Source of the DNA: a virus
Lineage: Duplodnaviria; Heunggongvirae; Uroviricota; Caudoviricetes
Strand: one strand, 5' to 3'
Length of the DNA: 11,914 bases
Virus record (IMG/VR): IMGVR_UViG_2671180884_000016
Span: 1 to 11,914 of that record
Under the pieces are notes generated by a model. The model was not told where the DNA came from. It worked only from the letters and a program-made list of their open reading frames with translations, and made no database searches. Of this stretch, positions 2,903 through 6,358 are shown piece after piece (position 1 is the first letter of the stretch; each line of letters opens with the position of its first letter). Made by a program: the position numbers and the translations under genes.

Positions 2903-3445
2903 TTATTCCTCCGTCAGCGCCACATATTCAGAATGTTTAATCTCCTGGCATTCTTCAGGAATACCCCCTTTTATTTCCCTGCCATAAGCGCCTACTTTAA
3001 ACACCACGCACAGGGCATCACGGGAGAGCGACGGGGTCCACCAGGAGTCCATGTTAAACATGGAGGGGATTCTCATTACCCCCAGCTTTTCACAGAGCCA
3101 GACAAGGAAATCAGGACGCTTTCTTAACTCGCGTTCAGCGGCTTCAATCATTGCGGCAATCGCCGGTCCTTCAGGGCATGACTCATCAGGTCTGGCAATA
3201 AAGCACGGTCCGTCCCCGATAAAAGCCACATCATCGCGCTTACGCCAGCCCGCAGGCAGAGCACCAGAAAAATAAAACTCACTGATTACGTCCATGGCAA
3301 ACGGCTTTAAGCGCAATCCGGCAGCGCCTGTATTTTTCAGTAATGCCCGAAGAATACTGTTGCGTAGCGGTAAAACAGTCTGTTGATATTTGGTGAAATA
3401 TTTATTTGTCTGCACACGGTCTAATTTGAAATAAAAATATGCCAT
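2903..3445 (-). CDS. hypothetical protein, 180 aa
   Basis: ORF with SD AAGGA upstream of ATG at 3445; first gene downstream of gam in the operon. Confidence 0.55.
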   Translation of the reverse strand: MAYFYFKLDRVQTNKYFTKYQQTVLPLRNSILRALLKNTGAAGLRLKPFAMDVISEFYFSGALPAGWRKRDDVAFIGDGPCFIARPDESCPEGPAIAAMIEAAERELRKRPDFLVWLCEKLGVMRIPSMFNMDSWWTPSLSRDALCVVFKVGAYGREIKGGIPEECQEIKHSEYVALTEE

Positions 3446-3542: not shown

Positions 3543-4073
3543 TTATTTATTCAGTCCGGCGTCCTGTTCAAAAGGCTCGACATAAAAACTTTCAGCGCCT
3601 TTATTCACCTTAATACCGGCAATGCCTTTCACTGCATCCGGCTCCGCCAGGACCGCTTCCTTGTTCACTTCCTCTTTCGTGCGGATGAATCGCTCAAGCC
3701 CCATACGGCGCAGCATTTCAATCACACCTTCCACATCACGGCTGACGCTGCATGATGGATTTCCCAGCCGCCATGACACTGTTCCGGTGGTCAGATTGGC
3801 TGTTTTGGTTTTGCCGCCGTTCGTCAGCTCATCGCGGTTGGTTTTGCACCAGTCCTGAATCCCCTTAAAAAGCACTTTGATTTCTTTTTTAAGGTTTTCA
3901 ATCTGCGGCGTATAACGGGCGGTGATTTCTGCCACTTCATCATTCATCGCCGTTTCCAGCCGCAGCGCCTCTCGCTGAATATCGCCCAGGGTACGGATAT
4001 CGCGGCTGACTTCTTCGCGGGTCTGCGGTGCAGCCTCGGCTGCGGCCTTTAATTTTGTAACACGTTTAGCCAT
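3543..4073 (-). CDS. gam: host-nuclease inhibitor protein Gam (Mu Gam / Ku-like DNA end-binding protein)
   Basis: 176 aa. Resembles the Mu Gam sequence as recalled: N-terminal MAK...LETAMNDEVAEI, central DELTNGGKTKTANLTTGTVSWR, C-terminal RFIRTKEEVNKEAVLAEPDAVKGIAGIKV...EPFEQ. Position in the early operon is appropriate. Confidence 0.8.
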   Translation of the reverse strand: MAKRVTKLKAAAEAAPQTREEVSRDIRTLGDIQREALRLETAMNDEVAEITARYTPQIENLKKEIKVLFKGIQDWCKTNRDELTNGGKTKTANLTTGTVSWRLGNPSCSVSRDVEGVIEMLRRMGLERFIRTKEEVNKEAVLAEPDAVKGIAGIKVNKGAESFYVEPFEQDAGLNK

Positions 4074-4084
4074 TTTGTTTTTCC

Positions 4085-4378
4085 TTATTGCAGTGTGCCT
4101 GATGCTTTATGCACGCGGTGGCGTTTAATGATGGCATCCGCCCCAAAAGCCTGTACAGATGCCTGAAATTCCGCTGAGAGAAACTGAATAATTTCAGGAC
4201 TGTGATACTGGAGAATACTTGCATAAACGTCACAGAGTGACGTCGGCCTGTTATTCGTATCACGTTCTGTTTTTACATCCACACCAATCTTTTCATGCAC
4301 TTCAACACAGTCATTGCCTGCCGGTTTTTCGTCATGCGAAACATGCTTAAATTCAAAAATAACGCGTACTTTGCTCAT
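4085..4378 (-). CDS. hypothetical small protein, about 97 aa; paralogue of the 4383-4655 gene (ORF track extends to 4405, internal start preferred)
   Basis: ATG at 4376-4378 is preceded by SD AGGGG and lies just after the upstream stop. N-terminus MSKVRVIFEFKHV matches MSKVVRIIFEYKEHV of the neighbour. Confidence 0.5.
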   Translation of the reverse strand: MSKVRVIFEFKHVSHDEKPAGNDCVEVHEKIGVDVKTERDTNNRPTSLCDVYASILQYHSPEIIQFLSAEFQASVQAFGADAIIKRHRVHKASGTLQ

Positions 4379-4382
4379 GGAA

Positions 4383-4655
4383 TTACCCCTGCTGATTAAA
4401 TTCATTACCTTTAATAACCCCGGAACGCATGCTCATATCTTTCATGAGCGCACTGGCTTTCATTGCCACAAGTTCAGCAAAGTCTCTGCTTTCCGCGAGC
4501 ATAACCACCCCAAAAATCATGGCGGGTCCATCACCTTTCTGCTTTATCCCGGTTGAACGTATGTCCAGACTTACCCCCATGCGCACTGTTCCATCAGCGT
4601 TTTTATGGATAACGTGCTCCTTGTATTCGAAAATAATGCGTACGACTTTACTCAT
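4383..4655 (-). CDS. hypothetical small protein, 90 aa; paralogue of the 4085-4378 gene
   Basis: ORF with SD-like GAGGACCAGAGG before ATG at 4655; ATGA overlap with upstream gene. Nucleotide similarity around both starts (aaaataaYgcgtac...ctcat). Confidence 0.5.
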   Translation of the reverse strand: MSKVVRIIFEYKEHVIHKNADGTVRMGVSLDIRSTGIKQKGDGPAMIFGVVMLAESRDFAELVAMKASALMKDMSMRSGVIKGNEFNQQG

Positions 4656-4933
4656 CCTCTGGTCCTCGTTCTGTTTGGATAACTGACCCGGCGTCTGACC
4701 TCACGGCAGAACCGAATCATGGCATTAAAGGCTTCTTCCTCCGTCACCGCTTCCGGTATCCCCGGAACCAGTAACTGCTCCTGTTCATCACGTCCATGAC
4801 GCGCCATAACCTCAATCACATGCCGTACCGTGGCAGGCTTTCCGGCAACTATCGGCAATGCACCTTCCGGCAGGACGTAACCAAACTCAATAAGACCACT
4901 CGACCACGCCCATGCAATGAGATTTTTTTTCAC
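4652..4933 (-). CDS. hypothetical protein, 93 aa, GTG start
   Basis: GTG at 4931-4933 is preceded by strong SD GGGAGGTG; no in-frame ATG nearby. Confidence 0.45.
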   Translation of the reverse strand: MKKNLIAWAWSSGLIEFGYVLPEGALPIVAGKPATVRHVIEVMARHGRDEQEQLLVPGIPEAVTEEEAFNAMIRFCREVRRRVSYPNRTRTRG

Positions 4934-4934
4934 C

Positions 4935-5189
4935 TCACACCTCCCAGTAAACCGTGCAGCCGCTGATGCGGGTGGCCTTCACACGGCGGCGCAGGCCGTT
5001 GGTCTGTATGGTGATTTCAATTTCACCGGTTCCCTGCACGTTGCCTACCGGCGGCGTGGTTTTCAGTGCAAAACGTTGCGGATAGCGCTTACTGCGTTCC
5101 AGTACCGCACCGGCAAGTTCGGTCAGACGGCGCGCGCTGTTCAGGGAGTCGAATAAATTCATTTTGTTACCGCAGGATTGCATATTCAT
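4935..5189 (-). CDS. hypothetical protein, about 84 aa (ORF track 4935-5201; internal ATG at 5189 preferred)
   Basis: The first ATG of the ORF itself forms SD GAGGTG for the ATG at 5187-5189. Confidence 0.4.
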   Translation of the reverse strand: MNMQSCGNKMNLFDSLNSARRLTELAGAVLERSKRYPQRFALKTTPPVGNVQGTGEIEITIQTNGLRRRVKATRISGCTVYWEV

Positions 5190-5201
5190 ATAACACCTCA
5201 T

Positions 5202-5423
5202 TTAGCTGACTTGTTTCGCACCAACAGAACGGCATATTCCGCTGTAAACGTCTGTCGCACCTTCGCGATCAAGTCCGGCAGATATCACCATTCGTGTGCG
5301 GTCATTAAATTCAAAAAGTAAATCGCCACATTCTTTATTTTCGGCCAGTGAAATCACCTTCACGTTATCGAAATTAACCAGGTAAAAGCGTCCGTAAATA
5401 TCAGGAATATTAAATACCGCCAT
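5202..5423 (-). CDS. hypothetical small protein, about 73 aa, immediately downstream of B (position of kil in Mu)
   Basis: ATG at 5421-5423 preceded by SD AGGTG; the ORF track's start at 5429 is a GTG two codons upstream. Follows B stop (TGA 5426-5428) after 2 nt. Confidence 0.45.
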   Translation of the reverse strand: MAVFNIPDIYGRFYLVNFDNVKVISLAENKECGDLLFEFNDRTRMVISAGLDREGATDVYSGICRSVGAKQVS

Positions 5424-5425
5424 AA

Positions 5426-6358
5426 TCACACCTGTGAGAGTAATTCAGGGTTGGTATAAACCTCTTTAAAGGCCGCATTAATATGTTTTTCTGTCAGCGC
5501 CGCGCCTTCACCGCTGGCGGTGAGCCACGCCTGGTTAAGCGTATGTGTCAGAACGCGTAACGCTCCCGGCTTTTCAGCGATAGCCTGCATGACGGCCAGC
5601 TCGGCCTCACCACTGATCCCCCACGCCCTGGCAATGGCCAGCACATCCGCCTTTTTGGCCTTGCGAAGTTGTTTTGTACGGGCAAGACGGCTGAACAGGC
5701 GCGATAAATCATCAAAGGCGCGGCGTCCACCTTTAAACAATCCGCGCGGGTTACCAATAAGCACCATCCCGATCCCCGTGGCGTCCTGAATTGCCCGGAG
5801 TTGCTCCAGACCGTCAATACCAAGATGATCCGCCTCATCCACAATCACCAGTCCACGCGTTCCCATCAGGCGACGGCGGATGGCGCGGGATAATGCCCCT
5901 TTGTTCGCGCGGGTGTAATCAATCCCCAGCGCATCGGCCAGCTCCAGCAGACACTCCGTGACGCTGGAGTGCGCGGGTGACAGGGTGATCATCCAGGTGT
6001 TTGGTTGCTCCTGGCAGTAATTACGGGCAGTGGCCGTTTTACCCACACCCGGTACGCCCACAATAACGTTAATACAGCCCATCAGACGAACCGCCTGAAA
6101 CAGTGCGCGCAGCTCCTGGACTGTCTGCGTTTCCACAAACTGCGGCGGTTCCGGCAGTGCGCTTTGTTTATTCCAGTTCTCATACCAGGAACGCAGGGAA
6201 GCAGCCACAGCAGCGTTATCGCCTTTATATTTTCCCTTACGGAAAGCCGATAATGTGCCGTCGGAAATTCCCGCCTCTCTGGCGATGGCATACTGCGTCA
6301 GTACGCCGCCATCAATAAGTTCATCAATGGTCTTGATTACATCGTTAATATCAGTCAT
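5426..6358 (-). CDS. B: Mu B-like DNA transposition protein (AAA+ ATPase target-DNA activator)
   Basis: 310 aa. N-terminal HTH-like region, Walker A GVPGVGKT, Walker B-like LVIVDEADHL; directly downstream of the transposase as in Mu. SD GAGAGG upstream. Confidence 0.85.
   Translation of the reverse strand: MTDINDVIKTIDELIDGGVLTQYAIAREAGISDGTLSAFRKGKYKGDNAAVAASLRSWYENWNKQSALPEPPQFVETQTVQELRALFQAVRLMGCINVIVGVPGVGKTATARNYCQEQPNTWMITLSPAHSSVTECLLELADALGIDYTRANKGALSRAIRRRLMGTRGLVIVDEADHLGIDGLEQLRAIQDATGIGMVLIGNPRGLFKGGRRAFDDLSRLFSRLARTKQLRKAKKADVLAIARAWGISGEAELAVMQAIAEKPGALRVLTHTLNQAWLTASGEGAALTEKHINAAFKEVYTNPELLSQV

Follow-up and report, generated by a model that had tools for sequence, protein, structure and literature searches.

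The window, by which we mean the whole stretch of 11,914 nucleotides that was analysed, includes the semi-essential early operon of a Mu-like transposable E. coli prophage. In the part of the window that holds the two small genes under study, here called A and B, all coding lies on the minus strand, and in the direction of coding the genes follow one another in the order MuB-like gene, 75-aa gene (p75), kil, g93, A, B and gam (Table 1). The open reading frame of gene A specifies a product of 90 aa that begins MSKVVRIIFEYKEHV..., and the frame that ends at 4085, when read from the ATG at 4378, encodes a protein of 97 aa that begins MSKVRVIFEFKHV... (gene B). RefSeq describes both as hypothetical proteins. 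Each has a mass of about 10 kDa, is without a transmembrane segment and is predicted to be soluble, the pI of B being near neutral. Rfam searches and scans for promoters, terminators and repeats found nothing relevant on the coding strand, and plus-strand open reading frames across the region (e.g., 4314-4556 and 4429-4686) were unsupported and were taken as antisense artefacts.

Table 1. Features of the early operon around genes A and B, in window coordinates.
Feature	Position	Strand	Remarks
MuB-like AAA+ transposition protein	5426..6358	-	Marker of the early operon
75-aa gene (p75)	5202-5429	-	Between the MuB-like gene and kil
kil homologue	4935..5201	-	Upstream context
g93	4652..4933	-	93 aa; phrog_1518, labelled 'host nuclease inhibitor'
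Gene A	4383..4655	-	90 aa, soluble, basic (pI 9.5), phrog_4107; extra, highly diverged family copy
Gene A codons 1-17 (MSKVVRIIFEYKEHVIH)	4605..4655	-	Common N-terminal motif; predicted first beta-strand
AGGGG Shine-Dalgarno-like motif for gene B	4386..4390	-	Within the final codons of gene A; sequence read directly
Gene B	4085..4378	-	97 aa, soluble, phrog_2230, D108 gene 7 homologue; conserved copy directly upstream of gam
Gene B codons 1-15 (MSKVRVIFEFKHVSH)	4334..4378	-	Common N-terminal motif; the B1/B2 allelic cassette has its 5' boundary here
Mu Gam-like gene	3543..4073	-	Downstream context

The original prediction, made from the sequence of the window, had placed the start of B at the ATG at 4378 and not at 4405, and this start is borne out by several lines of evidence. 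The same ATG is used in RefSeq entry WP_000049304, the full-length B homologues found start at the Met of MSKV.. or MSNK.. (except for two that are annotated with an extension of 1-2 residues), and the phrog_2230 profile begins at residue 3 of the 97-aa form of the protein. Furthermore, the AGGGG motif lies 7 nt upstream of the B ATG. The ATG at 4405 falls within the final codons of gene A, and prophages without A have no such upstream ATG. Since the ATG of gene A overlaps the stop codon of g93 (ATGA), A is probably translated by coupling to g93, and B, which follows A at a spacing of 4 nt, is probably translated from its own ribosome-binding site inside the 3' end of A, in both cases from the early transcript.

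The relationship between A and B

The two adjacent small proteins do have alike N-termini, as had been noticed from the sequence. Residues 1-17 of A and 1-15 of B are identical at 12 of 17 positions (BLASTP, E 9e-4 for a single comparison), nothing else of note being aligned, and the score of the local alignment (z 5.1) was reached by 1 of 2000 shuffles. At the level of DNA, the alignment pairs the initial 31 coding bases of A with 28 of B across one 3-nt gap (z 8.6; 0 of 3000 shuffles), and 28 of the 31 aligned bases are shared just after the ATG. The expectation that the DNA around both starts would be similar therefore holds on the coding side and fails upstream, where the 70 nt that precede the two ATGs show no similarity (z -0.5). 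On the same ground a duplicated leader between A and B was rejected. A comparison of the leader found in the E. coli CI5 prophage (see below) with the region upstream of B was marginal, its score being reached by 58 of 3000 shuffles. The N-terminal beta-strand motif M-S-K-V-x-[IV]-I-F-E-[FY] is the most conserved element of the family and is kept by A.

The original prediction also proposed a local duplication followed by divergence, and regarded a similarity confined to a few N-terminal residues as the outcome that would speak against it. In pairwise alignment the similarity is indeed so confined, for the score falls to chance level once the N-termini are removed (z about 0), and it is only the family profiles that rescue the homology. 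Single-sequence searches of 5.8 billion proteins returned, for A or B, only E. coli proteins of at least 68% identity. When the B family was used in an exhaustive profile search, proteins of 93-98 aa at 26-30% identity were recovered, and a merged profile brought in, besides the 87-aa Mu gp7 group, homologues from Salmonella, the 89-aa protein P0104 and a divergent A (P0078). Among PHROGs, A matches phrog_4107 alone (E 1e-61), which is its own narrow family, and does not match phrog_2230.

When the A family, the profile of which is shallow (Neff about 1.5), was compared with the broad B family, hhalign aligned 79 columns with a probability of 91% and E 1e-6, and the full-length score of 38.1 was not reached by any of 300 column shuffles (11.1+-2.2). 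In a body-only control, residues 1-17 of A and 1-15 of B were removed. The trimmed families still aligned collinearly over 56 columns and in the same register (hhalign, P 8e-4), with a score of 22.1 that only 1 of 600 sets of shuffled columns reached (10.1+-2.1). Because this signal survives the trimming of the N-termini, we conclude from the profile-profile evidence that A and B appear to be distant paralogs, whose very remote homology extends over most of the two proteins. Paralogy and the assignment to a family are, taken together, very probable.

Predicted structures match the pairing in part. AlphaFold2, run on shallow family alignments, gave models of low confidence (pLDDT 65 for A and 56 for B), both of which open with a long beta-hairpin of the same spans (E3-18/E24-39 in A and E4-19/E25-39 in B) and then diverge in the C-terminal half, where A has a strand plus a helix and B has two helices. 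A Foldseek search of BFVD with the model of A returned no match below E 0.28. In addition, the remoter homologues of B are more A-like, for example in the motifs V-x-V-R-S-x-G-[LI] and G-P-x-x-x-[YF]-[GA].

The collinear and significant body-only comparison argues against a chimeric origin, in which A and B would have only the first ~15 codons in common, by partial duplication, gene conversion or recombination at the 5' segment, and the body of A would be unrelated to B. So do the similar lengths of the two proteins, their equal predicted hairpin spans and the resemblance of the remoter B homologues to A. What speaks for such an origin is that pairwise similarity stops at residue 17 with the remainder at chance, that the body of A is 8% identical to B, that recombination of the B1/B2 cassette described below has its boundary in this same 5' segment, and that a natural A(1-49)/B(79-97) hybrid (P0036) exists. 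In a test for gene conversion, the number of identical residues in the common 5' segment that also have identical codons is slightly above expectation (8 of 11, with 4.8 expected; P 0.04), a marginal result that is compatible with some gene conversion or with a constraint at the level of mRNA and is not decisive. On this evidence we consider a chimeric origin unlikely.

Copy number, allelic exchange and selection

The full 571-nt A+B region was found at a coverage of at least 80% in 226 of 5426 complete E. coli genomes (about 4%), and an exact copy of the stretch (100% identity) is present in several complete E. coli chromosomes, one of them from an O157:H7 strain. The E. coli matches listed include O157:H7, O111:H8 and O91:H21 strains. 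A tblastn search with A and B against 50,697 phage records matched just two Stx phages with inserted Mu-like elements, apart from chance matches. Among 40 IMG/VR contigs and the E. coli CI5 prophage, the order of genes is mostly kil-g93-A-B-gam, some loci being without most of g93, and the A+B tandem is present in 38 of the 40 contigs. Gene B occurs without A in CI5 and in one contig (L081), and A occurs without B in none of those contigs, save one that ends within A. In the loci and proteins examined, A was seen in E. coli prophages only and always adjoining B.

Elsewhere a single member of the family lies between kil and gam (or a DUF3164 replacement of gam). This arrangement was found in Salmonella, in Citrobacter, in 3-4 further Mu-like contigs, in Mu and in D108, and kil is often followed by a g93 homologue in the single-copy loci. 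The Salmonella locus consists of kil, P0072 and DUF3164, and the locus of Citrobacter braakii and those of two further contigs consist of kil, a g93 homologue, a single B-like gene and then gam or DUF3164. The g93 homologue directly precedes the B-like gene in three loci outside this E. coli lineage. A profile search of genome contigs with a narrower alignment recovered a single Citrobacter locus. The presence of a single family member in other genera and phages supports B as the ancestral, widely conserved copy; A is an additional, strongly diverged copy of this E. coli lineage. In a Salmonella prophage and one relative (L084 and L089, 3803-4441), the protein that replaces Gam directly after the B-like gene is a 212-aa DUF3164 protein.

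Gene B exists in two classes of alleles, B1 (as in the window) and B2, which are ~60% identical to each other and reside within backbones that are 97-100% identical. Identity between B1 and B2 drops abruptly just a few codons after the start of B and is regained at its stop codon. These sharp boundaries in a conserved backbone establish that B is exchanged as an allelic cassette, with the conserved 5' codons as one of its boundaries. Comparison of alleles gave dN/dS values of 0.30 (A) and 0.35 (B), compared with 0.09-0.13 for MuB, kil, g93 and gam. Selection on A and B is therefore purifying, and it is relaxed about threefold relative to that on their neighbours. Both A and B are functional genes. 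Gene-wide positive selection was not demonstrated for either of them (dN/dS below 1).

Other parts of the region also vary among these prophages. Gene g93 is present or absent (window 4652-4933 on the minus strand; L002, 3239-3312; L011-L015; and others), and where it is deleted its last 22 codons (~66 nt) remain behind, as a 'leader' that separates kil from the gene after it. This remnant is in frame with A in the 116-aa proteins P0001 and P0013, or with B2 in CI5, to which it adds 26 aa (MKLLHGSALSSGQTP...). The hybrid P0036, a 67-aa protein of an E. coli contig, is an in-frame chimera in which window position ~4509 is joined to ~4144 on the minus strand. It is read here as the product of a deletion at a short run that the two genes have in common (TTTTGGGG, seen by eye), which would mean that the pair can collapse into one hybrid gene. 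Several alleles of A have a GTG start instead of ATG. A premature stop or a frameshift occurs in A in L018/L078 and L042/L082, and a frameshift at the start of B in L014/L071; these are either occasional pseudogenisation or sequencing errors. In a subset of the related prophages (L013, L014, L026, L028, L037, L038 and L087, 2790-3209), the 75-aa gene and kil are separated by an extra insert of ~420 bp. The insert of L087 encodes a 139-aa protein remotely homologous to Mu gp8 (E 8e-6), and Mu gp8-like genes therefore lie upstream of kil here and not downstream of it as in Mu. The 180-aa gene that follows gam (window 2903-3445, minus strand; phrog_2260) is represented by a version of 23-24% identity in several otherwise similar prophages and is another swapped cassette.

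Levels of identity bear on the age of the pair. Beyond the N-terminal motif, the identity of A to B is 8% and that of A to other-genus homologues and Mu gp7 is 11-16%, whereas B and the other-genus homologues are 22-28% identical. With its body equally far from all relatives, A did not arise by a recent duplication of B; the alternatives are an old paralog and one that has diverged very quickly. A recent in-place tandem duplication of B, with the upstream copy driven apart by strong positive, host-driven selection, would fit the adjacency of A and B on the same strand, N-termini that are closer to each other (12 of 15 aligned positions) than to those of other-genus homologues (which start MSNKVQVIFTFE), the confinement of A to the E. 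coli lineage, always beside B, and the raised dN/dS, but it is unlikely given a body of A no nearer to B than to other-genus homologues or Mu gp7, purifying selection on the extant alleles of both genes, and a junction between A and B that bears no trace of a duplicated leader (z -0.5; marginal for the CI5 leader). The duplication that had been proposed consequently stands in that A and B are paralogous by profile evidence, adjacent and co-oriented, and falls as a recent duplication whose copies diverged gradually.

The gp7 slot and the possible function of A and B

The place occupied by A and B, in the early operon, on the same strand, downstream of the MuB-like gene and kil and upstream of gam (or its DUF3164 replacement), is the same in Salmonella, Citrobacter, Mu and D108. 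Over residues 3-97, B matches profile positions 1-88 of the 89 in phrog_2230 (E 1.3e-40). The 89-aa protein P0104 fills the gp7 slot of Mu-type phages (kil, gp6, P0104, gp8, gp9, gam) and matches both phrog_2230 (E 6e-31) and the B family (E 2e-11); its relatives include gene 7 of D108, PhiR68_1, Mu_3F6 and Yersinia vB_YpM_5/6. The match between D108 gp7 and the B family spans 75 columns (hhalign, probability 98%, E 1.6e-14), and that between D108 gp7 and the A family is not significant.

Mu gp7 itself (E6/Mup07, phrog_10252) occupies the same slot, and the annotation of D108 flags no similarity to it. Mu gp7 and the 72%-identical P0086 match phrog_2230 over nearly their full length (E 0.009 and 5.6e-5, respectively), and Mu gp7 matches P0104 and D108 gp7 by hhalign (E 2-3e-4). 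The Mu gp7 family was matched to the broad B family with E 2e-3 and a score of 21.4, which 1 of 300 shuffles reached (10.6+-2.3), though this link is weak, with hhalign probabilities of 13-46%. The match of Mu gp7 to A (hhalign, E 0.03) is weaker than that to B, and BLASTP gave no match of Mu gp7 to either A or B. From these comparisons Mu gp7 appears to be a relative of the B family, a relationship that is weak but supported. Mu gp7, D108 gp7, P0104 and the other-genus homologues end in a C-terminal histidine (..TCH, ..ARH, ..VKH, ..NIH, ..SMH), which A (..NQQG) and B of E. coli (..GTLQ) do not have.

It is through Mu gp7 that a phenotype enters the family. Mu gp7 (NP_050611, Mu 4784..5047) is the 'gnarl2' (orf63) of Silas et al. 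(Nat Commun 2025; PMC12373910). When Gnarl2 was expressed in the wild E. coli strains ECOR1 and ECOR22, the O-antigen ladder shifted down and plating of T5 rose 10^5-6-fold (PMC12373910). The authors propose an interference with O-antigen biosynthesis, for a phenotype that was reported without a molecular target and is host-specific (PMC12373910). Pfam gave no match for A, B or their small neighbours and no enzymatic or DNA-binding signature, and the PHROGs matched by A and B (phrog_4107 and phrog_2230) are families of unknown function.

On remote homology and position, A and B may be Gnarl2-like host-modifying proteins, which we put forward as a tentative possibility; a transfer of the Gnarl2 function across 14-17% identity is speculative. 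In such a mechanism A and B would be non-enzymatic accessory proteins, made early after induction or infection, that bind host factors. A Gnarl2-like action would alter O-antigen/LPS and hence change phage susceptibility, and two diverged copies together with exchangeable B alleles could vary or widen the specificity for targets among E. coli hosts. The suggestion that the two genes serve a fast-evolving, host-driven function fits their dN/dS, the exchange of B cassettes and the link through Mu gp7 to Gnarl2. Overall, we regard it as reasonably likely that A and B are tandem early-operon distant paralogs of the gp7-slot family with a possible host-modifying role, the mode of expression and the envelope function being the presumptive parts of this explanation.

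The neighbourhood of the genes would also suit a role unrelated to the envelope, whether in transposition or replication, in how the host handles DNA ends, together with g93 and gam, or in anti-defence. A and B lie between g93, the 'host nuclease inhibitor' of phrog_1518, and gam; the adjacency of g93 and a B-like gene, with ATGA coupling, is conserved across genera; and the similarity to Gnarl2, a protein reported without a direct target, is remote. Searches of Pfam and PHROGs, however, matched no family related to DNA binding or nucleases, and Mu gp7 is the sole member of the family with a phenotype, so that a non-envelope role seems fairly doubtful. Returning to an action on the envelope, a broader proposal would make the gp7 slot the seat of one fast-evolving superfamily of O-antigen modulators (Mu gp7/Gnarl2, D108 gp7, A and B). 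The first 10-15 codons would serve as a recombination anchor for specificity cassettes, and the E. coli lineage would have stacked two members to act on different O-antigen or host backgrounds. As an account of the whole slot, this proposal is somewhat unlikely.

The analysis ties two 'hypothetical' proteins, which occur together in about 4% of complete E. coli genomes, to a family in which Mu gp7/Gnarl2 recently gained a phenotype, and it connects Mu gp7 with D108 gp7, the annotation of which records no mutual similarity. If A and B do remodel O-antigen, the induction of prophages in Shiga-toxin-producing strains could alter both surface antigenicity and susceptibility to other phages, and the allele series B1, B2, A, D108 gp7 and Mu gp7 would be a ready specificity panel for finding the target of Gnarl2. 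If they do not, the locus would be an ordinary variable accessory slot in a Mu-like early region.

Comparison with known systems places the pair among familiar arrangements. D108 gp7 and its relatives resemble gene B in length (89-98 aa), in the motif M-[AS]-K-V-I-F-E-F and in the core G-P-x-D-[VL]-x-A-x-I-[LIV]...[AS]-P-x-I-I, and D108 gp7 also shares with B its position in the early operon between kil and gam. However, gene 7 of D108 and Mu-type phages is single-copy and is followed by gp8 and gp9 before gam, whereas here B abuts gam and is preceded by the divergent A. Mu gp7/Gnarl2 is likewise similar in size (87 aa), carries the N-terminal motif MAKVIIEIK and occupies the same slot as D108 gp7. 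Like A and B, it is a small, non-enzymatic, fast-evolving accessory protein, but its identity to A and B is only 14-17%. The hypervariable accessory loci of phages (as in PMC12373910) also combine conserved flanks, here kil/g93 and gam (97-100% identical), with a variable slot, in which B1 or B2 (~60% identical), A present or absent and g93 present or deleted make up the variable content. Unlike in those loci, the content consists here of one protein family with two members in tandem and not of unrelated genes. A and B are therefore a tandem divergent pair in a known variable accessory slot, a modest refinement of that slot and no new kind of system.
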